Shown in pieces: positions 12,660 to 64,000 of a stretch of 64,000 nucleotides of DNA (within the stretch, counting starts at the first letter, position 1; each line of letters opens with the position of its first letter). Source of the stretch: Centroscyllium fabricii (lineage: Eukaryota); NCBI GenBank assembly GCA_051313645.2, contig JBNRSN020000001.1, forward strand, positions 420,608,001 through 420,672,000. The letters run 5' to 3'. The notes beneath the pieces are model-generated. The model ran no database searches. It saw nothing but the letters and a program-made list of their open reading frames with translations, and had not been told where the DNA came from. The position numbers and the translations under genes were made by a program.

Positions 12660-15600
12660 CATGGAAACAAGCCTGCTCCGCCATTTAATGAGATCATGGC
12701 TGATCATCCAAATTCAGTACCCTGTCCCTGCTTTCTCCCCATATCCATTGATCCCTATAGCCTTAAGAAATATATCTAACTCCTTCTTGAATATATTTAA
12801 TGAATTGGCTGATGGCTTATCAATAACTTTAGAGATGAGAAGTTGAGGAGTGAACTAAAGGCTTTTATTCACTAAGACATGAGCATGCCCCAGCTAGTCG
12901 ACTGATCCCAGAATGATTGGGGGAGGGAGACAGTCGCCTTTATACCTGGGTCTGGGGAGGAGGAGCCACAGGCGGGGTCAGAACAGGCATGCCCGGACAA
13001 GCTATACATGAAAGACTATGTACAAACAGTAGAGGTCACACACACAATGCATACAGATACAAACATATATATACAGTGGTTTACCACATTCACCCCTTGT
13101 TTAAAATAAAGTCCGGCGGGGTAATGTTGGGCAACCATCAAAGGTTCAGTCTCTCGGGCGGTTTGGTCTGCCCTGTAGAGCGGCGTACAGTTGGCGGTGG
13201 AGTCGGCGGCGGCAGAATCGGCGGCGGTGCTTGCTCCGACGCGGGGCCCCTTACGGTTACGGTCACTGGCGCGCTCTCCCACTCGTCGTCCGGCCAGCGG
13301 GTGTGTAGGTTTGGGGGCCATACCGTGCTGCCTGCAGGTGCTGGGTGGGCGTACCGTGGTGCTGGTGCCTCGAGGTGGATGACGTACCGTGGCGCTGGTG
13401 CCCCGAGGGTGGCAGTGGGGGGGTGGGGTGCGGGCTGGTGGGTCGTGGTGGTCTCGGGGGCACCCGAGGGTTCCAGGTCCTTGATGGACACCATGTCCTC
13501 CCGCCCTTCAGGGTACGCCACGTAGGCGTACTGGGGGTTGGCGTGGAGGAGGTGGACCCGTTCGACCAGGGGGTCCGACCTATGGCCCCTCACGTGCTTC
13601 CGGAGCAGGACAGGTCCTGGGGACGATAGCCAAGACGGCAGCGAGGTCCCTGAAGCCGACTTCCTGGGGAAGGCAAAAAGTCGCTCGTGAGGGGTGGCGT
13701 TAGTGGCCATACACAGAAGTGACCTAATGGAGTGGAGCGCTTCGGGGAGGACGGCCTGCCAGCGGGAGACTGGGAGGCCCTTAGACCGCAGGGCTAATAG
13801 GATGGCCTTCCAGACGGTGGCGTTCTCCCTCTCCACCTGTCCGTTCCCCCGGGGGTTATAGCTGGTAGTCCTGCTCGTGGTAATGCCCTTGGCAAGCAGA
13901 AACTGACGCAGCTCGTCACTCATAAAAGAGGTGCCCCGGTCGCTATGGATGTAGCTGTGGTACACGAACAGGGAAACGGTGCTGTGCAGTGCCCTAATGA
14001 CCGTGGAGGAGGTCATGTCTGGGCAGTGGATGGCGAAGGGGAAACGTGAGTACTCATCAATGACATTGAGGAAGTACACGTTGCGGTTAGAGGAGGGGAG
14101 GGGCCCTTTAAAGTCGACGCTGAGTCGCTCAAAGGGGCGGGTGGCCTTGATCAGGTGTGCCCGGTCCGGCCGGAAGAAGTGCGGCTTGCACTTTGCACAG
14201 ACCCGGCAGTTCTTGGTCATGGTCCTGACCTCCTCGATGGAGTAAGGGAGGTTGCGGGACTTAATAAAATGGACGAACCTGGTGACCCCCGGGTGGCAGA
14301 GGTCGTTGTGCAGGGTCTGGAGACGGTCCACTTGTGCACTGGCACATGTACCGCGGGACAGGGCATCTGGGGGCTCATTGAATTTCCCGGGCCGGTACAA
14401 GATATCGTAATTGAAAGCGGAGAGTTCGATTCTCCACCTCAATATCTTGTCATTCTTGATTTTGCCCCGCTCTTTGTTGTTGAACATAAAAGCGACTGAG
14501 CGTTGGTCAGTCAGCAGGGTAAATCGTTTGCCGGCCAGGTAGTGCTTCTAGTGTCGCACTGCTTCAACAATGGCCTGGGCCTCCTCCTCAACGGAAGAGT
14601 GTCGGGTCTCGGGGCCCTGGAGGGTGCGCGAGAAGAAGGCCACGGTTCTGCCCGCCTGGTTAAGGGTGGCGGCCAGGGCGAAGTCGGACGCATCGCTCTC
14701 CACCTGGAACGGGTTGGATTTGTCCACTGCGTGCATCGCGGCCTTTGCGATGTCCTGTTTTATGTCGCTGAAGGCCATGCGGGCCTCTGCCGACAGGGGA
14801 AAAGAGGTCGATTTGATGAGTGGGCGGGCCTTGTCCGCGTAGTTGGGGACCCACTGGACATAATAGGAAAAGAACCCCGGGCACCTTTTCAGGGCCTTGA
14901 GGGAGTGGGGGAAGGGGAGCTCCAGGAGGGGGCGCATGCGGTCCGGGTCGGGACTGATGACCCCATTCTCCACAACACAGCCGAGGATGGCGAGGCGGGT
15001 TGTCCTGAACACACATTTGTGTTATATGTCAGGTTCAGGGTTTTGGCAGTGTGGAGAAATTTCTGGAGGTTGGTGTCGTGGTCCTGATGGTCGTGGCCGC
15101 AGATGGTAACATTATCGAGGTACGGAAAGGTGGCCCGCAGTCCGTACTGATCTACCATTCGGTCCATCTCCCGTTGGAAGACCGAGACCCCGTTAGTGAC
15201 ACCAAATGGAACCCTGAGGAAGTGATAGAGGCGGCCGTCTGCTCGAAGGCAGTATAGTGGCGGTCCTCTGGGCGGATGGGGATACGCAGATTTTAAATCG
15301 ATGGTCGAGAAGACCCGATACTGCGCGATCTGGTTCACCATGTCCGCTATGCGGGGGAGGGAATACGTGTCCAGTTGCGTAAACCGATTAATGGTCTGAC
15401 TGTAGTCAATGACCATTCGGTGCTTGGCTCCGGTCTTTACAACTACTACCTGGGCCCTCCTGGGGCTATTACTGGCCTCGATGACCCCTTCCCTCAGGAG
15501 CCGTTTCACCTCCGACTTAATAAAGTCTCTGTCCCCGGTACTGTAGCGCCTACTTTTGGTGGCGACGGGCTTGCAGTCTGGGGTGAGGTTGGCGAAGAGT

Positions 15601-18600
15601 GAGGGAGGGGCGATCTTAAGGGTCGAGAGGCCACAGGTAGCGGGCTGTGGGCACTGTGCGGAGCGCTGGTTGCTGACCGTGAGCGGGGGAAGGGGCCCAC
15701 CATACGCCATTGTCACGCTCTGGAGATGGCATTGGAAATCAAGACCCAGCAGTAGGGGAGCGCAGAGCTGCGGCAGCACGAATAGCTTAAAATTTTGGAA
15801 GTGTACGCCCCGCACTGTCAGGGTCACTACGCAGCAACCGCAGACATCCGCTGATTCGGACCTCGTAGCCATAGAGATTTTTTGGCTTGACGGTGTTACT
15901 CTTAGTGAGAAGCGCTTTACCGTATTGGGGTGTACAAAGCTCGCCGTACTCCCGCTGTCGAAAAGGCAGTCTGTAGTTCGGCCGTTCACCTGCACCGACA
16001 TCATCGACTTGCTTAGCGGTTGACTCTTGTCTTGGTCGAGGGTGATTGAGGCCAGGATCGGGTCCGTCGGGTCAGTGGAGAGGTCAGGGGCCTGGTCCCA
16101 AGATGGCTGCCCCCACGCGGCGGGCTGTGTGGAAGATGGCTGTGTCCAAGATGGCGTGGCTGGCTGAGTCCAAGATGGCCTCTGCCCCCACGCGGCAGGC
16201 TGTGTGGAAGATGGCTGTATCCAAGATGGCGCTGCCCGCTGTGTCCAAGATGGCGGCCCCCACGGGCCACACGCGGCGCTGCTGGGTTTGGGGGTCGATT
16301 GCGCTGCCGCTCTGCATACCTTGGCGTATGGCCCTTCTTCCCGCACTTGGAACAGGTCGCGTCCTTTGCCGGGCAATTCCATCTGGGGTGCTGGGCCTGG
16401 CCGCAGAAATAACATTTTGGGCCTTTCGAGTTTGTAGCCGCGGTCAGCTCGTCCATGGGTCGCAATGCGGCCGGCTGCATCCAAGATGGCGGCGTCCGCG
16501 ATGTGCCTGCATGGTCAGAGTTGTAGGCGGCCTTATTGTGGGACGCCAGGTCCAGTGAGTTCGCAAGCTCTGCTGTCGCCTGCAGGTCCAGGCCATCCTT
16601 CTCCAACAGTCTCTGCCTGATATAGTCTGACCTGAGGCCGGCGACGTAGGCGTCCCTGATGAGACTTTCAGCGTGCACAACGGCCGTCTGTGCTCTACAA
16701 TTGCATGCCCGGCAGAGGACTCTCAGCGCTCGCAGGAACTCCATGCTCGATTCCCCGGGTTGCTGCTTTCGGGTGGCCAGGAGGTGTCTGGCGTAGACCA
16801 CGTTAGGTGCCCGGGTGTATTCACTCTTCAAGATTCTGACCGCCTCGGTGTAGGACGTAGCGTCCGCGATGATCGAGTATACCTGAGGGCCCACCTGGGC
16901 GTTGAGGAGGCGCAGTTTGTCCCTGTCCGCCTGGTCGATCGCGGCGGAGGCTTCGAGGTACGCCTCAAAGCAGTTGAACCAGTGCGTAAAAGTGTTAGAG
17001 GCACCTGGCGCTTGGGGATCTAGTTCTAACGTCGCGGATTTCAGCATTTGCTCCATGATGAAAACTTAGTGAATAAAATTGATGCCTAATCAATAACTTC
17101 AGAAACGAGAAGTTGAGGAGTGAACTAAAGGCTTTTATTCACTAAGACATGAGCATGCCCCAGCTAGTCGACTGATCCCAGAATGATTGGGGGTGGGAGA
17201 CAGTCGCCTTTATACCTGGGTCCGGGGAGGAGGAGCCACAGGCGGGGTCAGCACGGGCATGCCCGGACAAGCTATACATGAAAGACTATGTACAAACAGT
17301 GGAGGTCACACACACAATGCATACAGATACAAACATATATATACAGTGGTTTACCACATTGGCCTCAACTGCCTTCTGTGGTAGAGAATTCCATAGGTTA
17401 ACCACTCTCTGGGTGAAGAAATTCCTCCTCATCTCTGTCCTAAATGGCTTACCCCTTATCCCTAGACCATGACCCCTGGTTCTGGACTCCCGGCCATTGG
17501 GAACATCCTTCCTGCATCTAGTCTGTCTATTCCTGTTAGAATTTTATAAGTTTCAATGAGATCCCCTCTCATTCTTCTAAACTCTAGCGAATATAAGCCG
17601 AATCGACCCAATCTCTCTCCATACATCATTCCTGCCATCCCAGGTATCAGTGTGGTGAATCTTCGCTGCACTTCCTCCGTGGCAAGAACATCCTTCCTCA
17701 GATAAGGTGACCAAAACTGCACACAATATTCAAGGTGTGGTCTCACCAAAGCCCTGTACAACTGCAGAAAGACATCCTTGCTCCTGTACTCTAACCCTCT
17801 CGCTATGAAGGCCAACATACCACTTGTCTTCTTAACTGCCCTGCTGCACTTGCATGCTTACTTTCAGCGACTGGTGTACAAGGACACTCAGGTCTCGTTG
17901 CACTTCCCCTTTTCCCACTCTATTGCTGTTCAGATAATAATCTGTCTTCCTGTTTTTGCCACCAAAGCGGATAACCTTGCATTTATCCACATTATACTGC
18001 ATCTGCCATACATCTGCCCAATCACCCAACGTGTCCAAATCATACAGGAGTTTCTCTGCATCCTCCTCACAGCACATACGCCTACCCAGCTTTGTGTCAT
18101 CTGCAAACTTGGAGGTATTACATCTAGTTCCCTCATATAGATCATTAATATATATTGTGATTAGCTGGGGTCCTAGCACCGATCCCAGCGGTACCCCACT
18201 AGTCACTGCCTGCCACTTGGAAAAAGACCCGTTTATTCCAACTCTTTGCTTCATGTCTGCCAACCAGTTCTCTATCCAAGTCAGTACCTTACCCCCAATT
18301 CCATGTGCTTTTACTTTACACGCTAATCTCTGATGCGGGAACTTATCAAAAATCTTCTGAAAGTCCAAATACACCACATCTACTGGTTCTCCCCTATCTA
18401 TTTTACCAGTTACATCCTCAAAAAATTCCAGTAGATTAGTCAAGCAGGATTTACCTTTTGTAAATCCATGTTGACTTTGTCCGATCCTGTCACTGTTTTC
18501 CAAGTGCTCTGCTATTACATCTTTTATAATGGACTCTAGCATTTTCCCCACTACTGATGTCAGGCTTACCCGTTTTCTCTCTACCACCTTTTTTAAATAG

Positions 18601-32400: not shown

Positions 32401-33840
32401 AACTCTGCCAGGAGTGTGCCATAGGCATCGGAGTCCCTGGAGCGGCATTGGGCTGCCGCGTGGGCCAGGAGTGCGGGCCCTGTGGAGCATGGGATGGTCG
32501 TCATGGTATTTATATTTACCAAGCGGCGCCGAGTTACGTCGACCAGTAGGCCGCAGGCACAGAGGAAGTCTGCCCCGAGGAGGGGTGAGGTGACCTGGGC
32601 CGTTATAAAATCCCAGGTGTACGCGTGGCTTGCAAGGGTAATGGTTAACTTGCGGGTGCCGTACGTTTTTATGTTGGAGCCGTTGGCTGTCGCTAGTGGC
32701 GGGCCCCGGGTGCCTTGTTTGGTTTCTGCAGGGGAGGCTGGCACGATGCTGTGCTGCGCGCCTGTGTCGCAGAGGAACCTGAGGCCTGTGCCGCTGTCTG
32801 TGGCGAAGAGCAGTGCTCCTGTGTGGCCTACAGACATGGTGGGGGCTGGGTTGGGCCGTGGCTTAAACGCGCATGGCTGGACGCAGCGGTGCGCTTTGTG
32901 TTCGAACCGCGTGTGGTAGTAGCACCAGCCGGTGCTAGAGGAACGCGGTTGTCTAGGTGGGCGCGAGGCCCTAGGTTCAGGCGTAAAGTTATGCCTGGGG
33001 GGTGATTGGCTGCGCTCTACCGATGCGGAGTTAGGGTCGCACGTGGTTGAGCGGGTGCGCTGGGCCTCCATGAGCCTGTCGGCTTCCTCTCCGAGCTCGT
33101 CATCGCTCCGATGGCCAAGGGCCGCCAAGGCCGGTCTGATGGCGCAGGGTAGTTTAAGGAGGAAGACGGTGCGGAAGAGGGAGGCCGGGTTGGGTGTGAG
33201 CGCTTGCATCTGACCTAAGAGGTCCGATGGGTCTGCGTCCCCGAGCTCGGGGAGGTCGAGGAGCTGGCAGTCGCGCTCAAATTGGGAGGGGGCCTTAAGA
33301 GTTTCATACTTGCCTGCGACGGGCACGCGCTGTATTTTTGACCACATCCGATCAATCGTCGTCTGTGGAAGGGCTGAGAACACCAGGTCGTAGCGGTCGT
33401 CCCCTTGAATGCCATGTGTGCGGCAGCTGGTCTCGATACACATAAACCAGGCCGCTGGCCGTTGCTCCCAGAACTCGGGTAGAGTTAGTCCACGTCCGGC
33501 GTTCTGTCCAGCTCCTTGCGTTCGTGGAGCTTGGTTTCTTGGGTTTACCATGCTTTCTTAAAAAAGTCTTTGGCTGGTGGTCCCAGATCCTGCGGCAGCT
33601 TTTTCTTCACTGGAAGTCGTTCCAGTTCGGGGTCACCACTGTAGCGCCGGCAGGCCTAGGAACCACACGTGAGCCAGAGCTAGAGAAAACACAGCTTTAT
33701 TACACCAAGTAAAACAAGAAAGAGAGTGAACCACTCGCAGCAATCGTATTTAAATAGTCGTCGCGTCACCCGGATGAGCGGTGCTTTGCTCCGCGGAGTC
33801 CCCATGGCGGATTCGATGTCTCAGTGGGCGTGCCGCCACA
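29497..33840 (-). mobile_element. Full-length CsRn1-clade Gypsy retrotransposon
   Basis: LTRs at 29497-29714 and 33640-33840 (net 17 bp shorter on the right); TSD ATAT; tRNA-Trp PBS TGGTGACCCCG; Gag CHCC (CYYH...C...C), DTGA, YLDD, TDAS, IN with GPY; frameshift near 31140. Confidence 0.95.
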
Positions 33841-33855
33841 ATATTCCATATTCAT

Positions 33856-34305
33856 GCTGGAGCGATTCAGCTATGGAGAGAGTTGGACAGGCTGAGGTTG
33901 TTTTCCTTGGAGCAGAGAAGGCTGAGGGGGGACCTGATAGAGGTGTACAAAATTATGAGGGGCATAGATAAGGTCGATAGAAAGGAACTTTTCCCCTTAG
34001 TAGAGGGGTCAATAACCAAGGGGCATAGTTTCAAGGTAAAGGGCGGGAGGTTTAGAGGGGATTTGAGGAAAAACTTTTTCACCCAGAGGGTGGTTGGAAT
34101 CTGGAACTCACTGCCTGAAAGGATGGTAGAGGCAGGAACCCTCACAAATTCAAGAAGCATTTAAGTGAGCACTTGAAATGCCATAGCATACAAGGCTACG
34201 GACCAAGTGCTGGAAAATGGGATTAGAATAGATAGGGCTTGATGGCAGGTGCGGACACGATGGACTGAAGGGCCTCTTTCTGTGCTGTATAACTCTATGA
34301 CTCTA
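33856..34305 (+). mobile_element. CR1 3' fragment abutting the last splice acceptor
   Basis: LFSLEQRRLRGDLIEVYKI...FFTQRVV; tail AACTCTATGACTCTA ends about 15 nt before exon start 34321. Confidence 0.88.
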
Positions 34306-34320
34306 TTCTTTCCTCTGCAG

Positions 34321-35441
34321 ATTCCAGTGAATGTTTGCAGTGCTCAGAAAACCACTGGTCTGAGGAAGGAAGTTCAATGTGCCAGGATAGAACTAAAGAG
34401 TTTCTTCAATGGAGAGATGCTCTTTCTGTAGTGTTAATCACACTTGCCACCTTAGGAGGACTTATAATATGTATAATAATCATATTGTTCACAAAACATC
34501 TGAGTACACCAGCTGTGAAAGCTGCTGGAGGTTGGATGTGTTACATAATGCTGTTCTCACTGTTATGCTGTTTTGTCAGTGTTGTGTTGTTTTTTGGAGA
34601 ACCGTTTGATTACATTTGTAAAATCCGACAACCACTTTTTGGTATAAGCTTTACACTTTGTGTTTCCTGTATTTTGGTGAAATCTTTTCGGATCATCCTG
34701 GCATTTAGTTTTAATCCAATTATCCGTAAAAAGTTGAAGTATGTCTATAAACCAGTACCCATTATAATTGTTACCACAGGAATTCAAGTGATCATTTGTT
34801 CAACATGGTTATCTTTGAATACTCCAAAACCTGTGCAAAATAGAAACATCCCCAAAATCATTGTGCTGTTATGTGATGAGGGTTCCCATGTAGCATTTGC
34901 TGTAATGTTAGGATACATCATTTTTCTTGCATGTGTCTGCTTTGTTCTTGCTTTTAAGGGTAGGAAGGCTCCAGAAATGTATAATGAGGCAAAATTTATC
35001 ACATTTAGCATGCTCGTTTACTTAATTGTGTGGATTTCTTTTGGGGTTGTTTATAGTAACACAGAAGCTAATAACAGGTATTTTCCAGTGATTGAATCAA
35101 TTGCAATTTTAGCATCAATCTATAGCATTTTATGCTGCCATTTCTTTCCAACGTGCTATATAGTTTTGTTTAAGAAAGAAAGTAATGTTGAGTCAAGTTA
35201 CTTGACACGTGTAAGAGAGCATTTCAAGCAGAGAGGACAGTTTGTGTGTCCAACTGCAAATATAAAAAGAAACTCTGAAATTTCTACTGAAGAACAGCCT
35301 GCCGCCTTGGTACAAGTGAGAGCAGATTCTGAATTTGAATGTCAAGTTAATCAGAAAACGAATCATACAAACCAGATCAAGAATGGCCAGAATCAAACAC
35401 TTGACTCAAACTGCCTGAGAAAAAGAAGTAAAAGCTGGTAA
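34321..35441 (+). CDS. gprc6a-like: Class C GPCR terminal exon, 7TM domain and C-tail
   Basis: tcctctgcag|AT completes codon GAT; DSSECLQCSENHWS...TPAVKAAGG...CKIRQPLFGISFTLCVSCILVKS...AFKGRK...YNEAKFITF; stop TAA at 35439-35441. AFKG and TPxVKxxGG motifs are GPRC6A-like; exact orthology untested. Confidence 0.92.
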
Positions 35442-37888: not shown

Positions 37889-40800
37889 TGTGATGAAATA
37901 TTACTTCTGCGGCCAGGACAGGCACTCCAAGCTTCTGTGCCCAGCAAAGGGCACCCCTTGTTTCAAATGCGGGAAGAAAGGCCACTTCAGCAAAGTCTGC
38001 AGAGGGAACCCCGCCTCTAGCTCGTCCACCGCTGCGTGCGCGCCATGGGGGCAGCCATCTTGGATGCCATCTTGCCCCGACTCCTCCAGCTCCTCCACCG
38101 CTGTGTGCGCGCCATGGGGGCAGCCATCTTGGACGCCATCTTGTCCCAACTCCACGGACCCCCAGGACCCAATGGTGGCCTCGATCATGGTGGATCAATC
38201 CAGGTGGCAGCCGTTGTCTAAATCAATGATGGACATAAAAGTAAACGGGAACAAGGTACCAGGGGCGGCACGGTGGCACAGTGGTTAGCACTGCTGTCTC
38301 ACAGCACTGGAGACCCGGGTTCAAATCCAGCTTCGGGTACTATCTGTGTGGAGTTTGCACATTCTCCCCGTGTCTGCGTGGGTTTCCTCCGGGTGCTCCG
38401 GTTTCCTCCCACAGTCCAAAGATGTGCGGGTTAGGTTGATTGGCCATGATAAATTGACCCTTAGTGTTAGGGGGATTGAATGTGTGGGGTTACGGGGAGA
38501 GGGTGGGATATGTGTCGATGCAGGCTCGATAGGGATCGAGGGATGTGGGGGGAGGGCAGGGGTGGGGTGCTGGGTTTGGATGATCAGCCATAATCTCATT
38601 GAATGGCAGAGCAGGCTCGAAGGGCCGAATGGTCTACTCCTGCTCCTAGTTTCTATGTTAAATGCCTGGTTGACTGCGGGAGCACCGAAAGCTTCATCCA
38701 CCCTAGCCTGGTGAAGCGACTTTCACTAACGGTAGTCCCAGCACAGGGCAAACTCGCCATGGCTGACAAGACTCATACCTCCCATATTACAGGTTTTTGC
38801 ATGGTCATGTTATCGGTAAAAGGCAATGATTATAACAAATTTTAAATGTTGGTAATGCCTTATCTCTGTGTGAGCGTGATCTTGGGTCTGGATTTCCAGT
38901 GCCACCACCAAAGTATCATGCTTACCATCGGTGGGTCCCAGCCGCCCCTCACAGTGTGTGGTCTGGCTACCCTGAAAGTCAAGCCGCCCTCCCTGTTTGC
39001 CAATCTCACACCAAACTGTTGCCCCATAGCGACCAAGAGCAGGCGGTACAGCCGGGAGGACAGACGGTTCATTGCGGCGGAAGTGGAAAGACTACAGCGG
39101 GAGGGCATTATTGAATGCAGTACCAGCCCGTGGTGCGCCCAGGTGGTAGTTGGTAGTGGTTAAGGGTAGCGAAAAGAAGCAGATGGTGATAGACTAGCCA
39201 GACGGTTATCTATACACCCAGCTGGATGCCTACCCCCTGCCCTGCATAGCAGATATGGTCAATTAAATCGCTCAATACCAGGTGTTTTCCACCATTGACC
39301 TAAAATCGGCATACCACCAGCTCCCCATTAGGCTGGAGGACCGTCCATATACTGCCTTTGAGGTGAACAGACGCCTCTACCACTTCCTGAGAGTCCCCTT
39401 CGGGATAACGAATGGGGTCTCGGTTTTCCAGAGGGAGATGGACCGCATGGTCGATGAGAACCAGTTAGCGGTCACCTTCCCATACCTTGACAACGTCACC
39501 ACCTGTGGCCACGACCAACAAGACCACGACTCGAACCTCGCAAGGTTCATGAAAACCGCCCACAGGCTCAACCTCACCTATAACGAGGATAAGTGCATCT
39601 TTAACACAACGCACCTCTGTATCCTGGGCTGCGTGGTGGAAAACGGGGTAATCGGTCAAAACCCCGACCGATTGCGCCCCCTACGGGAGCTACCCCTATC
39701 AAGCATCCCCAAGGCCCTGAAAAGGTGCCTGGGATTCTTTTCCTACTATGCCCAATGGGTCCCCAATTACGCAGAAAAGGCCCGTCCCCTCCTGAAATCA
39801 ATGTCCTTCCCGCTCATGGCCGAGGCCCACGCCACCTTCAACAGTATTAAGCTCGATATTGAGAAGGCCGCGCTGCGGGCAGTGGACGAAGACGTCACTT
39901 TCCAGGTGGAAAGCGATGCGTCCAACTTCGCTTTAGCAGTCACCCTCAATCAGGGTGGGCGGCCCGTGGCCTTTTTCTCAAGAACCCTCCAAGGGTCTGA
40001 GACCAGGCACTCTTCAGTAGAGAAAGAGGCCCAGGCTATAGTGGAGGCAGAGTGGCACTGGAGGCACTACCTAGCCGGAAAACGCTTCACCCTGCTTACC
40101 GACCAGCGGTCAGTAGCCTTCATGTTTAATAACAAACAGAGGGGGAAGATTAAAAATGACAAAATCCTCAGGTGGTGGATCGAACTCTCTACGTTCGAGT
40201 TCGACATTATATATAGGCCGGGGACCCTCAACGAATCCCCCGACGCCCTATCACAAGGGATGTGTGCCAGCATCCAGGGAGACAGGCTACAGGCCCTCCA
40301 CAATGACCTCTGCCACCCGGGAGTCACCCGGCTATTCCACCTTATAAAATCCCATAACCTGCCCTACTCCATCGAGGAGGTCCGGTCTATGACCAGGAAC
40401 TGCCGCATCTGTGTGGAATACAAACCCCGTTTTTACAGACCCGACCGAGCCCACCTGATCAAAGCTACACAGCCATTCGAGCGCCTGAGCTTATATTTCA
40501 AGGGACGCCTCCCCTCCACCAATCGCAATATGTACTTTCTCAACATTGTGGATGAGTACTCCCACTTCCCATTTACCTACCCCTACCCAGACATGACCAG
40601 TGCCACGGTCATCAAGTGCCTCGGCAGCCTGTTTTGCATGTTCAGCATGCCAAACTACATCCACTCTGACAGAGGGGCGTCGTTTATGAGCGACGAACTG
40701 CGCCAATACCTGCTGTCAAAAGGGATAGCCATGATTCGGAACACTAGTTATAATCTCTAGGGTAATGGGCAAGTGGAGAGGGAGAACGCGGCAGTGTGGA

Positions 40801-41574
40801 AGGCGGTTACCTTAGCATTACGGTCTAAAGGCCTCCCTGCCTCCCGCTGGCAGGAGGTCCTCCCAGACGTACTCCACTCGATCAGGTCGCTCCTGTGCAC
40901 CGCAACCAATGCCACTCCTAACGAGAAGATGTTTGTGTTTCCCCGCAAATCAACTTCAGGAGTGTTCCTACCTTCATGGCTCTCCACCCCAGGATCTGTC
41001 CTACTACGGCAGCATGTGAGGGGCCACAAAATGGATCCCCTTGTGGAGGCAGTACACCTACTGCACGCGAACCCACAGTACGCGTACGTCAAGCACGCCG
41101 ATGGGCATGAGGACACTGTGTCCATAAAGGACCTTGCCCCAGCAGGAAGTGACGGCATCCCACCCTTACCACCCCCAGAATTACCTGCCACACCCCCAGC
41201 GCATGGGTATGCCCAGGAGGGCACCACAGACACCAGGCTTGAACCCGAGGTACTGTTGCACCAGTCAGGACGGACTATCACACCCCCGGACAGACTAAAT
41301 CTGTAGAAGGGGTGAATGTGATGAAATATATATACTTTCATCAGCCTGTGTTTCTACCTTAGACTTACCTGTAATGTGCGTGTATGTACCGCCCACTTTT
41401 CTATTGTATGTATTGGGCTCCGCCCCCTGTCTTTTGCCATATAAAGGACTCCTGAACTGTATGAGTCATTCAACCTGGAGAACTCAGTGTGGAATCATGT
41501 ACCACAGTTCTTAGCTATTAAAAGCCTATCTTTGAGTCCTCAAACCTCTCATTTGTGTTATTGATGGCCCACCA
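37889..41574 (+). mobile_element. Gypsy (YLDN-RT lineage) with most of the 5' LTR and gag deleted
   Basis: Starts with TGTGATGAAATAT, the first 13 nt of the 3' LTR (41317-41574), fused to the gag zinc knuckle; TSD GGAGT/GGAGG; PR, RT YLDN, RH and IN fragments; PPT GAAGGGGTGAA. Confidence 0.9.
38262..38657 (+). mobile_element. HE1-like V-SINE inserted in the Gypsy protease
   Basis: GGGGCGGCACGGTGGCACAGTGGTTAGC head, box B GGTTCAAATCC, V-domain, CR1-type tail; splits NGNKV|KCLVDCGS. Confidence 0.9.
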
Positions 41575-42461: not shown

Positions 42462-45400
42462 AAATGCAAGAAGTCACACAACACCAGGTTATAGTCCAAC
42501 AGTTTTATTTGAAATCACAAGCTTTCGGAGCGCTGCTCCTTAAGTTCTCTTCTTTCACCTGAGGAAGGAGCAGCGCTCCGAAAGCTTGTGATTTCAAATA
42601 AAAGTGTTGGACTGTAGTGCATGCAGGCCTGAAGAACCACGCGGGAGCCGGTAAGACAGAGAACACTTGTTTATTACATTACAGGGGCCAGGTAGAAAAG
42701 AGACTGATCCACCTGGAGCAGCCTTATTTAAAGGGCCCGCGGTTGGTGACATCACCACGCCGGAAGTCCCGGTGACGTCTTTACGCCGGAAGTCACGGTG
42801 ACGTCATCACGTCACCCGATGGGCGGGGCCGTGCCCTGCAGTACTCCCGAGGCGGATTCGATGCCTTTGGTGGGCGTGTCGCCACACAGCTCCCCCCCAG
42901 AATCTGTGAGGGAGAATAAAGTGAAAATAAAAAATGAGGGAGAATAAAGTAAAAATAAAAAATGAGTCTCAAGCGAGGCGTTGAGGTGGCCGGATGATGC
43001 GGCCGGCACGTGTTGTGCACTGCTCCTTGTTCTGCGGTGGAGTGTGGGCGGGTTTTGGTGCGGGAGGGCGTCCGCGTTTTGGTGGCTGCGCGGGGACTGT
43101 TGTCTCACCCGCTATTACGTGTGCCGGTTTGAGCCGGTCTATCGAGACGGTTTCAGATCTGTTGCCCATTTTGAGTTCGAAAGCCTTAGCTCCCACCCAA
43201 AGCACCCTGTACGGTCCATCATACGGTGGCTGTAGTGGCGTTCGATGTGCGTCGTGGCGGACAAACACATATTTGGCGTTCTTAATGCCGTCCGGTACAC
43301 GTGCTGCCGGCTCTCCGTGCCGGGCCACCGGTAGTGGTTTGAACGCTCGTGCCTGGTTGTTGAAGTCTTTGAGGCACTGGTCAGCTGACCAGGTAGCGTT
43401 AGGTTCTGCGAGGAACTCACCTGGTACGGTTAGGGGTTGGCCGTAGACGAGTTCCGCCGCTGATGCGTGCAGGTCTTCTTTGGCCGCTGAGCGTAGGCCG
43501 AGCATTACCCAGGGCAGGCGGTCTGTCCAAGTTGCGTCCTTCAGACTGGCCCGCAGAGATGCTTTGATGGAGCGGTGGAACCGTTCGCAGAGTCCATTGG
43601 ACTGTGGGTGGTAAGTGGTGGTTCGGTGTAGGGTTACCCCAAGTTCACGGGCGATGGTCGCCCATAGTGTCGACGTGAATTGGGGGTCTCTGTCCGACGT
43701 GATGTCGGTGGGTACGCCGAAACGCGCGACCCAGGTGGCGATGAAAGCCCTGGCCAGGTCCGTGGTGCTGGTAGCGACGAGTGGGACTGCTTCTGGCCAG
43801 CGAGTGCTGCGGTCGACCATGGTCATGACGTGTGTGTGTCCCCGTGATGGAGGTAGTGGTCCGACCAGGTCGATGTGGACGTGGTCGAAGCGTCTAGCTG
43901 GTATGGTGAACATTTCCAGCGGTGCCTTGATGTGCTTGTGCACCTTGGCGCGCTGGCAGGCAGTGCAGGCGTTGGTCCAGGCGCGGACATCCTTGCGCAG
44001 GCCGCGCCAGACGAAACGTGCCGAAATCAGCTTGCTGGACGCGCGGGTGCCAGGGTGGGACAGGCCATGAAGGGTCTGGAAAATGTGTCGCCTCCATGCG
44101 TGGGGGACGACGGGTCTGGGCTGCGGGAGGGAGACGTCGCAGCAGACCGCGGTGGCTGTGGGCCCGTGTGCTACGCTGGCCAAGTGCAGGCCGGGGAGGT
44201 TGGTAGCTGGGTCGAGCAGGTCAGGGTCGGTTAGTTGGTCGGTTGCCAGTTTGGCGTAGTCGACCGCCGTTTGTACGGCGTTGATGGTGGGACGTAACAG
44301 GCAGTCGGCGACCACATTGTCGCGGCCGGCGATGTGTTGTATGTCCGTGGTAAATTCCGACACGGCCGCGAGCTGGCGCTGCTGCCTGGCCGACCAGGGT
44401 TTGGCGATCTTAGCCATTGCGGACACAAGCGGCTTGTGATCAACGAAGGCTGTAAAATGTCGGCCCTCCAAGAGGAAGCGGAAGTGGCGCACTGCGAGGT
44501 AGAGAGCGAGTAGCTCCCTATCGAAGGCGCTATACTTGACCTCTGGGGGCCGAAGTTGCCGGCTGAAAAAGGCCAAGGGTTGCCAGGAGTTGCCGGTCCA
44601 CTGCTCGTAGACCGCTCCGACAGCGTGGTCGGAGGCGTCGGTGGTGAGGGCCACTCTGGCATTGGGCCTAGGGTGGGCTAGGAGCGTGGCATTGGCCAGG
44701 GCGGTTTTGGTTGCTGTGAAGGCTGTGGTGGCTTCGGCCGACCACTCGACCGCAGTTTTGTTGGACTGCCCGCGTGTGGCCTGGTAAAGGGGTGCCATGA
44801 GAGCGGCTGCTCCTGGGATGAAGCTGTTATAAAAATTAACCATCCCTAGGAATTCCTGCAGCCCCTTGATGGAGTGCGGGCGGGGTAATTCCTGGACCGC
44901 CTGCACCTTGGAGGGCAGGGGTATGGCCCCGGTTTGGGAAATGCGGTGGCCGAGGAAGTCGATCGTCTCGAGGCCAAATTGACATTTTGAGGGGCTTAAT
45001 ACGAGACCGTGTTCGGTCAGGCGTTGGAACAGGGTCCTGAGATGGAGGAGGTGTTCCTGGGGGGAGGTGCTGGCCACGAGGATGTCGTCTAGGTAGACGA
45101 ACATGAACTGCAAGTCCCGTAGGACTGAGTCCATGAGGCGTTGGAAGGCCTGGGCCGCGTTTTTCAGTCCGAAGGGCATTCGGAGGAATTCGAATAGTCC
45201 GAATGGGATGATGACGGCTGTCTTAGGGACGTCCGCCGGGTGCACTGGTACCTGGTGGTAGCCCCGTACCAGGTCGATCTTAGAAAAGATCATGCAGCCC
45301 GCTAGCCTGGCGGAGAAATCTTGGATGTGGGGGACAGGGGACCTGTCTGGGGTGGTGGCGTTGTTGAGGCGGCAGTAGTCTCCGCAGGGGCGCCAACCAC

Positions 45401-47236
45401 CACCCGGTTTGGGGGCGATGTGGAGGGGGGAGGCCCAGGGGCTTTTGGAGCGGCGGATTATGCCGAGTTGTTCCATAGTGCGGAACTCGGTACACGCGAT
45501 CTCCAGTTTGGCCGGGTCCAGCCTGCGGGCGTGGGCATGGACGGGAGGGCCGGTGGTGGTGATGAAATGCTCCACCCCGTGTTTGGCCGTGCGGGCTGTG
45601 AAGGTGGGGTTGGTGAGTGCTGGGAACTCCGCGAGGAGCGTGCCGTACATGTCGGAGTTCCGGGCTCGGCAGTGTGCCGCTGCGTGGGCCTGGCGTGCCG
45701 GCCCTGTGGAGCATGGGATGGTCGACATGTTGTGGATGTCGACCAGTCGGCGCCGGGTCATGTCGACCAGGAGGCCGTGGGCGCAGAGGAAGTCTGCCCC
45801 GACGAGGGGTAGTTTGACCTGGGCGGTGATGAAGTCCCAATGGTACATGTGGCCTGCTAGCTTGATGGTGAGCTTGCGGGTGCCGTACGTTTTTATTTTG
45901 GAGCCGTTTGCGGATTCGAGTGGCGGGCCCCGGGTGCCTTATTTGGCTTCTGCGGGGGAGGCTGGCACGATGCTGTGCTGCGCGCCTGTGTCGCAGAGGA
46001 ACCGGAGGCCTGTGCCACTGTCTGTGACGTAGAGCAGTGCTCCAGAGTGGCCTACAGACATGGTGGGGCTTGAGGCAGGTTGGGGTTTGAAAGTGCAGGG
46101 CTGGACGCCGCGTTGCGCTTTGGATTCAAACCGGGTGTGGTAGTAGCACCAGCCGGTGCCCGATGTGCGCGGCCTTTTGCGGGGTCGCGTTGGCCTGGGT
46201 TCAGGCCTGGGGTCGGACTTGGGGTGCGCGTGGCGGGGCTCGGATGCCGTGGCAACGGGCTCGCACGTGGCGGAGTGGGAGCGCTCGGCCGTCATGAGCT
46301 TGTTGGCCTCCTCAGCCAGCTGTTCTCCGCTGTGGTGGCAGAGGGCCTTCAGAGCCGGTCTGACGGAGGGGGGCAGTTTGAGGAGGAACAAGGTGCGCTT
46401 GATGGAGGCTGGGTCTGAGTTCAGCGCTTCCATTTGGGCCCAAAGTTCCGATGGGTCTGCGTCCCCGAGTTCGGGGAGGTTGATGAGCTGGCAGTCGTGC
46501 TCAAATTGGGAGGGGGAGAATTTTTTAAGCAGCGCGGCCTTAAGGAATTCGTACCTGCCTGCTGCTGGTGCACGCTGTAACGTCGGCCACATCCGATCGA
46601 CCGTGGTCTGTGGTAGGGCCGCGAAGAGCAGGTCGTAGCGATCATCCCCCTGGATGCCATGGATGTGGCAGCTGGTTTCGATGCAGAGGAACCAGGCCGC
46701 TGGGCGTAGCTCCCAGAACTCTGGTAGAGTTAATCTGTGGCCGGAGTTCTGGCCCAGTCTTTGAGGTCGCGCAGCTTGGCTTCCTGATGGCATGTTGGTT
46801 GGAAGTGCTCTGAGGCAGCTTGGCCCTCAGTCCTGCAGCAACTGCTTCATTTTTGTTCTCTTGGAAGACGTTCCAAGTACGGGGTCACCACTGTAGTGCA
46901 TGCAGGCCTGAAGAACCACGCGGGAGCCGGTAAGACAGAGAACACTTGTTTATTACATTACAGGGGCCAGGTAGGAAAGAGACTGATCCACCTGGAGCAG
47001 GCTTATTTAAAGGGCCCGTGGTTGGTGATGTCACCACGCCGGAAGTCCCGGTGACGTCATCACGCCGGAAGTCGCGGTGACGTCATCACGTCACCCGATG
47101 GGCGGGGCCATGCCCCGCAGTACTCCCGAGGCGGATTCGATGCCTTTGGTGGGCGTGTCGCCACAGGACTATAACCTGGTGTTGTGTGACTTCTTGCATT
47201 TGTCCACCCCAGTCCAACACTGGCACCTCCACATCA
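42462..47236. mobile_element. Palindromic Penelope-derived hairpin element with a hammerhead motif, split by the Gypsy at 42613-47165
   Basis: Arm 42462-42541 is the reverse complement of 42565-42612 plus 47170-47201; tcac-CTGAGGA-a-ggag/cagcg/ctcc-GAAA-GC-TT-gtga at 42555-42591. Confidence 0.8.
42613..47165 (-). mobile_element. Full-length CsRn1-clade Gypsy with one nonsense codon in the protease
   Basis: 274-bp LTRs at 42613-42886 and 46892-47165 (about 10 differences); TSD GGAC; Trp PBS; gag-PR at 46793-45939, TAA, then in-frame pol to 42969 (YLDD, RH, IN). Confidence 0.95.
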
Positions 47237-48384: not shown

Positions 48385-50413
48385 TTCCAATCTATATGTA
48401 GATTAAAGTCACCCATGATGACTGCTGTGCCCTTATTGCACGCATCCCTGATTTCCCTTTTTATGCCATTGTGGCGACACGCCCACCAGCAACATCGAAC
48501 CCGCATCGGGAGCGCTGCAAGACGGTCCCGCCCACCAGGCGGCGTGCTGACGTCACCGCGACTTCCGGCGTGATGACGTCGCCAGGTGGAGACCCGACAG
48601 TGACGTCACCTACCGCGGGACCTTTAATTACCTGGGCTCCAGGTGGCTCAGTCTCTTTTCCACCTGGCCCTAGCTGTAGTAACATTAAATGATAACTTTC
48701 CGACTCATCTGTGTCCAGTGTGGTTCTTCGGCCCTGCATGCCTCTACAGTGGTGACCTCGATACTTGGGATGAATTCCAAGAGAACAATGAAGCAGTCGC
48801 TGCAGGACTGAGGGCCAAGCTGCCTCAGTTGAATCGCAACCACCATGCCAGCAGGGATCGAAACAGCACGCCACCAAAGACGGGGCCAGCACTTCGGCAA
48901 AATCCCAAACCTACCTGAGTTCTGGGAACTCCGTCCAGCGGCCTGGTTCCTCAACACTGAGAACACCTTCCGCATCTATGGCGTGCAGGGGGACGATCGC
49001 TACAGCCTGCTCTTCGCAGCCCTTGCGCAGCCCACAATCGACCGAATGTGGGACTCCATCGAGCAAGAACCAACTGCTGGCAGGTATGAAACGCTTAAGG
49101 CCGCGCTGCTCCAAAAATTTACCCCCCCCATTTTTGAGCGCGACTGCCAGGTCATTAACCTCCCCGACCTGGGTGACGCAGACCCCACCGACCTGTGGGC
49201 CCAATTCGAAGCGCTTAACCCAGATCCGGCCATTCTCAAGCGCGCCTTGTACCTCCTTAAACTGCCCCCCTCCGTCAGACCGGCTCTGACGGTCCTGGAG
49301 CACTACTCGGGCAAACAACTAGCTCAGGAGGCAGACAAGCTGATAAAGGCCGAGCGCACCCGCGCCACCATGCACCGTAATGCTGCCGCTCCACCGGAGC
49401 AGTACTACGCGCACCCCAGGCCCGGGCACAGGCCCCAAGCCAGAGCGGTGCGGACCCACAAAAAAACACGCACTACGGGCCCAGGCTGGTGCTATTACCA
49501 CACCAGGTTCGAAGCCAAAGCGCAGCGCTGCGTCCAGCCCTGCACCTTCAAACCCCAAACCAGCCCAGGCCCCACCATGTCCGTAGGCCGCTCCGGAGCA
49601 CTGCTCTTCGTTACAGACAGTTGCTCAGGCCTCCGCTTCCTCTGCGACACAGGCGCGCAGCACAGCATCGTGCCAGCCTCCCCCGCAGAAACCAAGCAAG
49701 GCACCCAAGGCCCACCACTCGAAGCCGCAAACGGCTCCGAGATAGTTACGTTCGGCACCCGCCAGCTTACCATCAAGCTGGCAGGCCACACGTACACGTG
49801 GGACTTTATCACAGCCCAAGTTAAAATACCCCTACTCGGGGCCGACTTTCTGTGCGCCCACGGCCTCCTGGTCGACGTTACCCGACGCCGCCTGGTCGAC
49901 ATCCACAACATGTCGACCATCCCATGCTCCAAAAGGCCGGCACACCAGGCCCACGCAGCGGCCCACTGCCGAAGCCGGAACTCCGACACGTACGCCACGC
50001 TGCTCGCGGAGTTCCCAGCCCTCACCAACCGTACGACGGACCATTCAGAGTGCTTCGGGCGGGACCCAAAACTTTTCAAATTGAAATGGGCAATAGAGCC
50101 GAGACTGTCTCAATTGACCGGCTCAAACCGGCACACGTAATGGCGGGCGAGACAACAGTCCCCGCACAGCCACCAAAGCGCGGATGCCCTACCGCACCAA
50201 ACCCCGCCCACACTCCTACGCAGAACAAGGAGCACCGCACGACACGTGCTGGCCGCATCATCAGGCCACCTCAGCGCCTCGCCTGAGACGACACGTGCAG
50301 GCTACATCATCAGCCTGCCTCAACATCGCATTTCGGAACATGGAACAGCGCACGACACGTGCGGGCCACACCATCAGGCCACCTCGGCAAACCGCCGGAC
50401 ATTCTATGTTATA

Positions 50414-60606: not shown

Positions 60607-63600
60607 TGTGGTAACCGTTGATATACAGTTATTTACCACCATAATATTGTGTCCAATATTATCTGTATGTGTAGCGGTCGGGTGCATGATGCAACTGTCC
60701 TGTGTTGCGACACTGTCGTGGGGCCAGGTCAGCCACACCTCTAACTCCTCCCTCAGGTGAGTGCCTTATAGGTGGGGACTGACCGGCCCCCATTCATTCT
60801 GTACCTGATGTTCGATTGGAGCGTAGCTCCATTGTAAGCTAATAAAAGCCTTGAGTTAAGGTAACTACTCGTCTTTAGTTTTATTAGATTATTGACGATA
60901 CGTCAATTTTATTAGCTTAAAAATTTGAAATGGAGAGCGGCGCTGTGAAACCCGAAAAGCTGGACATTAGTACACAGGACCCAGCCGCCGCCAACACCTT
61001 CGAACACTGGTTCGGCCTCCTGGAGGCCTACATGGACGCCGCCAAGGCTACAACCGAGGGGAACAAGTTACAAGTTCTCCGATCCAGAATCTCCAGCCGG
61101 GTATTCTCTTTCATCCGTGACGCCAAAACGTACCCCGATGCGATGGCTAAACTGAAGAAATGCTACGAGCGCCCAGTCCACTCAGTCTACGCCAGACACG
61201 TGCTCGCGACCAGACCACAACTACCGAGTGAGTCAAATGAGCAGTTCGAGCAGGTGCTCCAAGCCCTGGTCCGTGTCTGTGGCTGCCAACCACGGACGGC
61301 AGAAGAAGAGGCGAACCTCCTCATCCGGGACGCCTATGTAATGGGACTCAGGTCCGCAGAGGCCCGCCAGCGGCTGCTGGAAAAAGACTCTTTGACTTTG
61401 GAGGAGGCGATCTCTATCTCCAACTCTGTGGACGGCGCACGCCGCAAACTGCAGGCGTACGGCGGCCCAAACCCACAAGCTTACGACACGTGGGCAGCCC
61501 CACAACGGGTCGAGACCCCTGCGATGGCAGCGGCAGCTGCGAAACCGCCGGCGGAGAAAAGATGCTACTTCTGCGGCCAGGGACTACACCCACGGGCGAA
61601 ATGCCCAGCAAAGACCGCGACCTGCGAGAGGTGCTCCAAGAAGGGACACTATGCCAAGGCCTGCAGATCAGCCCCGGCGTCCAGCTCCAGGTACAACAGC
61701 GCGGCCTGTGAAAGCTCTCAGGTAAGCTGCAACTGCAGCGCGACCCAGCAACGGTCCGGGGGTAGAGTACAAGCGCCCCCATCTCCCACACTGAGGCGGC
61801 AGAGGCCGGCTGCACCCACGGCACGCCAAACTCAGCCACGGCCGGCCATGCGCGACCCTCCAACGCCAGCATCCCGCCCAGCGCGGCCCGCTGCGTGCGA
61901 ATCACGGGCACCGCCACCGCATCTACAGCGGCCCGCTGCGTGTGAACCACGGGCGCCGCCATCTTGTCCGCAGCGGCCTGCCATGTGCGACCCCCGGCAC
62001 CGCCATCTTGTCTTCAGCGACCAGCCATGTGCGACTCGCCGGCGCCGCCGTTTTGTCCCCAGAGGCCGGCCATGTGCGAACCACGGGCACCGCCATCTTG
62101 TGTACGGCCCCGACCAGCGGAGGGCTCACACACACACTCACACACTTCGGCCTCAGCTATCCCGAAAGTTGATCAGGCTAGGCCGCACACCCAATCAAAT
62201 TCCATGATGGGGATTAAAGTTAATTGCCATGTCACGAACTGCCTGTTCGACACCGGAAGCACAGAGAGCTTTATTCACCCTGATACAGTGCAGCGCTACG
62301 GACTGCAGATCCGGCCCACGCGCTACCAAGTCTCCCTTGCTTCACAGTCCCACACCGCGGACGTCACTGGCTACTGCTCCGTCACGCTCACAGTTAAGGG
62401 CAGCGTGTACTGTAATTTTAAACTGTACATTCTGAAGCAGTTGTGCTCCCCAGTCTTACTCGGACTGGATTTCCAGTGCCACCTTGAGAGCCTGACAATG
62501 GAGTTCGGCGGGACCCTGCCCCCCCTCACCGTCAGTAGCCGGGACAATCCCTTCCCAAAGCGGAGCCCGGCCTGCGGCCTCTCCACCCTGAAAGTCGACC
62601 ACCCCTCACTGTTCGCCAACCTGGACCCCAACTGCAAACCCATTGCTACCAAGAGTCGGCGTTACAGTGCAGGGGATCGGACGTTTATCAGGTCGGAGGT
62701 CGGGCGTATGCTAAAGGAGGGGATAATTGAAGCCAGCACCAGCCCCTGGCGGGCCCAGGTTGTAGTGGTGAAGACTGGCGAGAAACACCGGATGGTTATC
62801 GATTATAGCCAGACCATTAACCGCTACACCGGGCTCGACGCCTACCCCCTCCCCCGCATCTCGGAAATGGTTAACCAGATCGCCCAATATAAGGTGTTCT
62901 CCACAATCGACCTTAAGTCGGCGCATCACCAACTCCCAATCCGGAAAGCCGACCGCCCGTACACCGCCTTCGAGGCGAACGGTCGGCTCTACCACTTCCT
63001 CCGGGTCCCCTTCGGCATGATCAACGGAGTGTCAGTGTTCCAACGGGAGATGGACCGCATGGTTGACCAAAACGGGTTGCAGGCCACCTTCCCCTACCTG
63101 GACAACGTGACTATCTGCGGCCATGACCAGCAGGACCACGATGCCAATCTGGCCAAATTTCTCGACACGGCGAAATGGCTGGATCTCACATACAACAAAG
63201 ACAAGTGTGTCTTTAGTACAGATCGGCTCTCCATCCTCGGATACGTGGTGGAAAACGGGGTCCTCGGCCCCGACCCACAGCGTATGCACCCCTTACAGGA
63301 ACTGCCCCTTCCTCACAACCCCAAAGCCCTGAAGAGATGTCTAGGATTTTTCTCTTATTACGCGCAATGGGTTCCCCAATTCGCGGATAAGGCCAGACCG
63401 CTCCTCAAGGCTGCCGTCTTCCCCCTCTCGGCAGAAGCCCACACGGCGTTCGCCCGGATCAAGGAAGATATCATCAAGGCGACCATGCACGCCGTTGATG
63501 AGTCCATCCCTTTCCAGGTGGAGAGTGACGCTTCGGACTTTGCCCTTGCCGCCACCCTGAATCAGGCAGGCAGGCCCGTACCGTATTTCTCCCGCACCTT

Positions 63601-64000
63601 ACAGGGACCCGAAATTCGCCACTCTGCAGTGGAAAAGGAGGCTCAGGCCATCGTGGAGGCCATGCGCTACTGGCGTCATTACCTGGCCGGTAAGCGTTTT
63701 ACCCTGCTCACCGACCAACGGTCGGTCACGTTTATGTTTAACAATAAACAAAAGGGTAAAATCAAGAATGATAAGATCCTGCGGTGGCGGATCGAGCTCT
63801 CGACTTACGAGTACGACATTCTTTACTGACCAGGCAAACTCAATGAACCCCCGGACGCACTGTCCAGGGGAACGTGCGCCAGTGCCCAGCTAGTCCGGCT
63901 GAAGGAACTCCACGATCGCCTCTGTCACCCGGGTGTCACCAGACTTGCCCACTTCGTAAAATCCCGTAGCCTCCCCTACTCCATCACGGAGATCAAGGCT
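60607..64000 (+). mobile_element. Gypsy (YLDN-RT lineage), running off the window end
   Basis: 5' LTR at 60607-60905; self-complementary PBS; gag ATG at 60930, CCHC, PR DTGS, RT YLDN, RH; 1-nt loss near 61996; CGA>TGA stop at 63827. Confidence 0.93.

Follow-up and report, generated by a model that had tools for sequence, protein, structure and literature searches.

A natural asparagine in place of the last aspartate of the reverse transcriptase YxDD motif in an abundant Ty3/gypsy-like retrotransposon lineage of Centroscyllium fabricii

The third aspartate of the reverse transcriptase (RT) active site, the last residue of the YxDD box in motif C, is treated as essential in vivo. A change from DD to DN at this place has been used to call RTs dead. 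An example is the G2L5 group of bacterial group II-like RTs, where the conserved change was read as a loss of activity (Simon and Zimmerly 2008, PMC2602772). Three copies of an LTR retrotransposon lineage with YLDN in this box lie within 64,000 nucleotides of the Centroscyllium fabricii genome (GenBank assembly GCA_051313645.2, contig JBNRSN020000001.1, positions 420,608,001 to 420,672,000 of the forward strand), a stretch referred to below as the window. They raise the question of whether an RT can naturally do its work with asparagine at the third position.

The substitution itself is already known from BEL/Pao elements and from G2L5. The nematode BEL/Pao elements Cer7-Cer12 of C. elegans have YVDN, and the 2005 paper describing them states that their activity awaits a biochemical test (PMC554778). 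YVDN is also reported for the Ancylostoma Atlas virus and its relatives, which belong to BEL/Pao as well (PMC9094657). These are LTR retroelements with a natural asparagine at the last YxDD position, as in the lineage studied here. They are intact elements of a separate superfamily, whereas the present lineage is Ty3/gypsy-like. G2L5 shares the DD to DN change, but it is bacterial and not an LTR element. In the literature covered, with Repbase, GyDB and most subscription papers outside that coverage, we found no description of YxDN for a Ty3/gypsy lineage.

The same swap at the same residue has been engineered in two LTR retrotransposons. In Ty3, D214N is reported to retain polymerase activity with lower processivity, while D151N and D213N abolish polymerisation; none of the triad mutants transposes, and the proposed part of D214 is an assisting one, not the binding of the essential metal (PMC5371799). 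In Ty1, PMC2148107 describes a D211N enzyme that polymerises with kpol decreased 223-fold, prefers Mn2+ and supports no transposition; second-site suppressors in the RNase H domain bring back 5-10% of it. The initial annotation of the window had stated that this replacement strongly impairs retroviral RT and blocks Ty1 transposition. The block agrees with these reports; the annotation had missed that both mutants still polymerise in vitro and that YVDN is a precedent. Since the mutants polymerise, a two-aspartate RT of an LTR element is plausible. The mutants are nevertheless slow, less processive and unable to transpose, in contrast to the natural lineage, which has grown to some 190,000 copies.

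The three YLDN motifs, each within FPYLDNVT, are encoded exactly as first annotated: TAC CTG GAC AAC at 63095-63106 of the plus strand (copy A), TAC CTT GAC AAC at 39483-39494 of the plus strand (copy C), and TAC CTC GAT AAT at 15122-15111 of the minus strand (copy B). The two neighbouring Gypsy elements, putatively of the CsRn1 type, have YLDD as had been claimed; they are distinct from the YLDN lineage, with about 32% identity to it. With a 416-residue RT-RNase H query from copy A, phmmer gave Ty3 RT as the best match (PDB 4ol8, E 8.7e-46), the closest solved sequence to the lineage, and the YLDN of copy A aligns opposite its YLDD. An AlphaFold model of the RT, built on an alignment of 99 sequences (mean pLDDT 92.3), places motif C on the palm beta-hairpin, with strand 170-173, a turn and strand 176-181. 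The best Foldseek matches of this model are the RTs of CaMV and Ty3.

Copy A begins at 60607 on the plus strand and continues past the window end at 64000. Its 5' LTR (60607..60905, 299 bp, TG...CA) is 98.3% identical to the 3' LTR, which lies beyond the window at window-equivalent positions 65151-65449, and the element is flanked by the 5-bp target duplication GCTTC. The gag ATG is at 60930. An open frame at 61946..63829 covers protease, RT and RNase H (PF13975, PF00078 and PF17917), with the motif A aspartate, D111 of the query, at 62909..62911. Copy A is broken, as gag and pol are out of frame in a repeat region near 61950-62200 and a stop occupies 63827-63829. Copy B is outlined in full length on the minus strand (12810..17358). 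Its 279-bp LTRs at 17358-17080 and 13088-12810 are 96.4% identical, the target duplication is GCCAA (5 bp), and the gag-PR-RT-RH-IN region is disrupted by frameshifts and stops. Copy C on the plus strand (37890..41574, with an approximate start) is 5'-truncated and broken. It has a 3' LTR at about 41317-41574 and lacks the 5' LTR and most of gag; the primer-site region of this family was seen only in another member, L128.

Pfam matches on the window frames give the domain order gag-PR-RT-RH-IN, with one CCHC box in gag and no env, and genomic copies hold single frames of 1,270-1,510 amino acids. A purine tract precedes the 3' LTR in copies A and B. The integrase, placed after RNase H, is of the D-D-35-E type (HSDRG...NGQVE, a D-to-E spacing of 35 as read from the sequence); no chromodomain was found in the integrase frame of copy B. 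The lineage thus combines TG...CA LTRs, 5-bp target duplications, a polypurine tract, this domain order and a Ty3-like RT, and we place it in Ty3/gypsy on the strength of its best phmmer and Foldseek matches. BEL/Pao elements are described as having a triple Cys-His box in gag and an integrase of the form D-D(45-53)-E (PMC554778), so the single CCHC box and the spacing of 35 residues show that the lineage is not BEL/Pao. No matching sequence from named Gypsy clades was present in the searched supplement files of PMC6238403 and PMC8556966, a scan of IMG/VR returned no relatives, and NCBIfam gave no matches.

Could the asparagine be a product of decay after insertion, or of chance? All three window copies are broken elsewhere, and copy A even has a private change of tyrosine to histidine in motif A. 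The window copies are, however, old and well separated: their pairwise DNA identity is 72.5-73.4%, and in the RT core pS is 0.74-0.78, near saturation, against a pN of 0.14-0.20, so that they represent distinct old families. In the whole genome of 7.21 Gb, one degenerate 32-nt context matched 191,091 copies with YLDN and 236 with YLDD; these are exact-pattern matches, which miss diverged copies. Single A>G controls in the same context gave 370 matches for YLDS and 682 for YLGN. At motif A an independent one-step control, a T>C change, was matched 659 times against 178,994. The latter is the histidine of copy A, which we had considered as a second oddity of the lineage and rejected as sporadic. 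YLDD, at 0.12%, therefore stands at or below the point-mutation floor of 0.19-0.37%. Asparagine is encoded both by AAC (136,438 copies) and by AAT (54,653 copies, a number inflated by CpG decay).

Searches of other designs agree with these counts. A query ending before the motif recovered AAY in 29 of 29 copies; a protein search with the motif inside the query, which is biased for this reason, gave YLDN in 30 of 30. In a DNA tree of copies from the same genome several older families look YLDD-only because only YLDD copies had been picked from them, and the YLDD-targeted stretches L113 and L130 are represented by an adjoining YLDN copy. Two such older families were counted directly by a pattern that put no constraint on the codon's first base; 99 copies of one and 98 of the other, among the first 100 listed in each case, have AAY, so that these families are 98-99% asparagine. 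Asparagine is also the state in 85 of the 120 best of 1,232 homologues from other genomes. Post-insertion decay or chance is thereby already refuted, and we give it practically no probability. By all these counts asparagine at the last YxDD position is inherited in this lineage.

An inherited asparagine could still belong to an RT that is inactive or otherwise employed, in elements that rely on a YxDD partner for copying in trans. Elements with YLDD, from another clade, do adjoin the copies in the window, and the G2L5 precedent takes the same change for a loss of activity. A passenger RT would be expected to decay, and this is not what is observed. Within one family pN/pS is 0.17 (1,653 pairs of 58 close copies). 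Between families the median is 0.18 for the RT core and 0.12 for RNase H (36 pairs of nine natural copies), values that are uncorrected and so conservative at saturation. Among 99 aligned proteins the motif A aspartate D111 and the first motif C aspartate D175 are the only invariant columns. The third position departs from the canonical triad, with 72 asparagines and 27 aspartates. Two invariant aspartates and purifying selection are not, in our view, what a passenger enzyme dependent on a helper would show.

The youngest copies point in the same direction. We examined 60 hand-picked stretches (20 long-frame matches, 20 YLDN copies selected to span many families and 20 YLDD copies), and 32 of the 60 had clean LTR pairs. 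The three copies with identical LTRs among these 32 all carry YLDN, and so do the three in which all 12 checked enzyme motifs lie in one frame; complete gag-pol frames with every motif thus carry asparagine. The eight YLDD copies among the 32 have LTR identities of 91.9-98.3% and broken frames of 255-860 amino acids, and same-lineage YLDD copies are only 0.12% of the total in the genome. Copying in trans by a YxDD partner is therefore very improbable in our estimation. The youngest sampled copies carry asparagine rather than YLDD and nothing points to a helper. The copy counts, the young copies and the purifying selection thus bear out the earlier view that the asparagine is not decay, and make the natural two-aspartate RT it had proposed very likely to be functional, acting in cis. 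That the RT of this lineage works with only two catalytic aspartates is, on this sequence evidence, highly probable. The lineage argues against the default reading of DN as the mark of a dead RT.

How widespread is the asparagine form? The 120 best homologues mentioned above (47-81% identity) include sequences from cnidarians, a sea slug, a spider, flatworms, Trichinella, rays and a catshark. Apart from the 85 with asparagine, 33 have aspartate and two have another residue; the ranking used an asparagine-bearing query and may favour asparagine slightly. A control clade, retrieved with one of the YLDD neighbours in the window as a query, had 117 aspartates, one asparagine and two other residues among its best 120. 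Of 80 metagenome loci, 35 had DN and 28 had DD; another 15 had decayed in some other way or were misaligned, and two were not covered. Judging by the encoded residues, the last position of motif C in this lineage is aspartate or asparagine across animals, and almost nothing else.

The two states have replaced each other many times. With the motif column left out, a FastTree phylogeny of 115 rows and two outgroup sequences requires at least 20 changes between aspartate and asparagine, and a quick IQ-TREE phylogeny of 99 rows requires at least 19. Shuffled states on the FastTree phylogeny gave a mean of 29.6 and a minimum of 22 in 1,000 replicates. The number of changes is thus lower than in shuffled data and yet large: subclades pass the state on in part, but it is labile; the weak support of deep nodes means that gains and reversions cannot be ordered. 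Such switching within one lineage, together with the evidence of function from copy counts, distinguishes this case from the YVDN of BEL/Pao.

It had also been proposed that asparagine co-evolved with tRNA-independent priming from a hairpin just after the 5' LTR. No TGG-type tRNA primer site is present behind the 5' LTR. Instead, 12-15 nt at this place pair with a stretch within the LTR that lies over the poly(A) signal. In copy A the 5' arm is at 60835..60847, inside the LTR over AATAAA, and the 3' arm is at 60907..60919, at the primer-binding position and lacking a TGG start; in copy B the arms are at 17146-17133 and 17078-17065 of the minus strand. Pairing of at least 12 nt was found in 23 of 26 copies from the same genome, while shuffled sequences gave a mean of 6-7 nt. 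Among 28 copies picked for showing the hairpin there are 22 distinct arm pairs. Twenty of these have no mismatch in 12 bp, and at 9 of the 12 positions the two arms have changed in step. These matched changes indicate that the hairpin is real and selected.

The role of the hairpin is a separate matter. Tf1, Tf2 and Tj1 likewise have no tRNA-type primer site and pair a sequence after the 5' LTR with one inside the LTR, but for Tf1 and Tj1 this partner sequence is reported to form the 5' end segment of the transcript (PMC4600332 and PMC6317226), whereas in the present lineage it is the region of the poly(A) signal. The LTR arm lies about 70 nt past a TATA-like box, over AATAAA, and not at the expected 5' end of the RNA. 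Self-priming by the hairpin is only inferred from sequence, and masking of the 5' poly(A) signal would be an equally simple role.

The link with asparagine fares worse. In its favour, copies sampled from the C. fabricii genome carry both traits, and on a weakly rooted tree the two could still have arisen together early in the lineage. Against it, the hairpin is also present in aspartate members: L187 (YLDD, LTRs 97% identical), L174 (YLDD) and L154/L191 (YHDD as read from DNA). The subclade of L187 and L154/L191 comprises 16 loci with 14 DD, one DG, one DS and no DN (FastTree support 0.997). A scan of 46 metagenome loci that extend 2 kb or more upstream found the hairpin in 9 of 24 with DN, 2 of 12 with DD and 8 of 10 with other residues, misses including loci with no LTR in range. 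Of the loci classed as having other residues, one is L154, whose DNA encodes YHDD, and another, L212, resembles a tandem-repeat artefact. The hairpin was found in 0 of 33 downstream controls, which are the valid control here, because the hairpin is symmetric and a reverse-complement control is uninformative. Aspartate and asparagine also switched repeatedly inside the lineage, and YVDN occurs in a separate superfamily. An obligate link between asparagine and self-priming is largely refuted by these observations, and a co-evolution of the two appears improbable.

If the asparagine RT works, something must compensate for the change, since the Ty1 and Ty3 mutants fail to transpose. We suppose that the motif A aspartate and the first aspartate of motif C hold both metals, as in Ty3 RT, and that the third position would be only auxiliary, so that an amide could fill its role. 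Less firmly, we propose that active-site changes shared by the whole lineage made the site permissive once, and that aspartate and asparagine were then swapped repeatedly at little cost. Fifteen sites are conserved yet different between the lineage and the single control clade that was compared. They include Thr178 for Leu, Gly181 for Ser, Ser77 for Arg, Ala59-Gln60 for Ser-Pro and, in motif B, VTxGV for LKxAA (Val147-Thr148 and Gly150-Val151). The threonine two residues past the variable position is found in 80 of 85 asparagine and 29 of 33 aspartate members, and leucine in 98% of the control clade. In the AlphaFold model Thr178 should face the same way as Asn176, which lies on the same strand. 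No column tracks asparagine itself (the best p of 924 tests was 7e-5, not below the Bonferroni threshold of 5e-5), and no residue co-varying with asparagine passed an independent-pairs test.

That remodelling of the palm is the reason why asparagine is tolerated has, in our judgement, a little under an even chance. With slightly less confidence still, we suggest tentatively that the third aspartate is optional in this lineage with both residues about equal, that the asparagine form drove one of the large repeat expansions of this genome, and that Thr178 and the other shared palm residues act as natural suppressors of the defect of Ty1 D211N and Ty3 D214N.

Another explanation is that the polymerase is slow with asparagine, and that this is offset by the small size of the element together with an adjusted RNase H rather than by a remodelled polymerase site. 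It opposes only the permissive step in the palm and not the function in cis. The suppressors of Ty1 D211N do lie in RNase H (PMC2148107), and the elements are short, about 4.0-5.1 kb. The RNase H catalytic residues are nevertheless conserved (D317 in 114 of 117 sequences, E354 in 113 of 114, D379 in 106 of 111). Moreover, a 200-fold handicap should let the reversion from asparagine to aspartate, which is one transition away, sweep through the copies; YLDD stays at 0.12%, and the sample contains no expanded YLDD subfamily. We regard this explanation as unlikely, though less so than a co-evolution with priming, and a permissive palm remains our preferred reading.

A Gypsy lineage with an apparently optional third aspartate, together with strong population evidence that the asparagine form functions, is what is new here. 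Whether asparagine can stand in for this residue was left open for the YVDN of BEL/Pao elements in 2005, and the evolution of the present lineage speaks strongly for it. Natural pairs of aspartate and asparagine members in one sequence background, with a few residues proposed as permissive, make the question directly testable, and the answer bears on the role of the third carboxylate in two-metal catalysis and translocation. For the annotation of genomes the consequence is practical. A very abundant lineage of repeats would be misjudged wherever YxDD is required of an RT: at 4.5-4.9 kb each, the 191,091 matches would amount to up to about 0.9 Gb of the 7.2-Gb genome, if all were full length.

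In the YLDN lineage, i.e., Ty3/gypsy LTR retrotransposons with Asn at the last position of the RT YxDD motif, a stretch of the LTR pairs with the sequence directly behind the 5' LTR to form a hairpin at the primer-binding position. In copy A the arms are at 60835-60847 and 60907-60919 (plus strand), and in copy B at 17146-17133 and 17078-17065 (minus strand). The LTR arm included a poly(A) signal (AATAAA, ATTAAA or GTTAAA) every time, both in copies A and B and in the loci L073-L131 and L134-L207, and its pairing partner is present behind the 5' LTR only. Therefore, the hairpin could mask the 5' poly(A) signal, either besides or in place of supplying a primer. The loop is 38-66 nt long, and the three terminal A:T pairs were unchanged across 22 distinct arm pairs, which were taken from copies picked for showing the hairpin. 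In own-genome copies the gag ATG mostly lies within about 25 nt after the hairpin, and thus there is mostly no space for a tRNA site in these copies.

The stretch that separates the CCHC box from the protease carries arrays of 45-nt and 75-nt repeats, variable in copy number (61840-62130, plus strand, in copy A; 16084-16264, minus strand, in copy B). The frame loss in both copies falls in these arrays. The protease region of copy C is split by an insertion at about 38264-38660 (plus strand), which resembles a tRNA-derived SINE.

The window also holds three elements of another Gypsy clade (30816-33557; 42969-45938, minus strand; 48833-50140, plus strand). Both RT-bearing elements among them have YLDD and were used as a control for the YLDN lineage. 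In the database search their homologues came from fishes, a tunicate, sea slugs and a nematode (53-74% identity). The window also includes numerous LINE frames with FADD motifs (9453-12389 and 26139-27926, both plus strand, and others), which we take to be CR1-like. Two exon-like frames (40-1203 and 34293-35441, plus strand), which we take to encode the Venus-flytrap and 7-TM parts of a class C G-protein-coupled receptor, flank copy B and further repeats; these repeats are probably intronic.

Among the best 120 of 1,232 database homologues of the YLDN RT (47-81% identity), the named ones belong to corals, a sea anemone, a sea slug, a spider, a liver fluke, a tapeworm, Trichinella, rays and a catshark, the nearest being those of the catshark and two rays (65-79%), which points to a cartilaginous fish as host. 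The motif of the lineage was matched exactly at least 191,091 times in the whole 7.2-Gb genome of C. fabricii, about once per 38 kb, and some copies have identical LTRs. Judging by these two observations, the expansion of the YLDN lineage is very large and recent.
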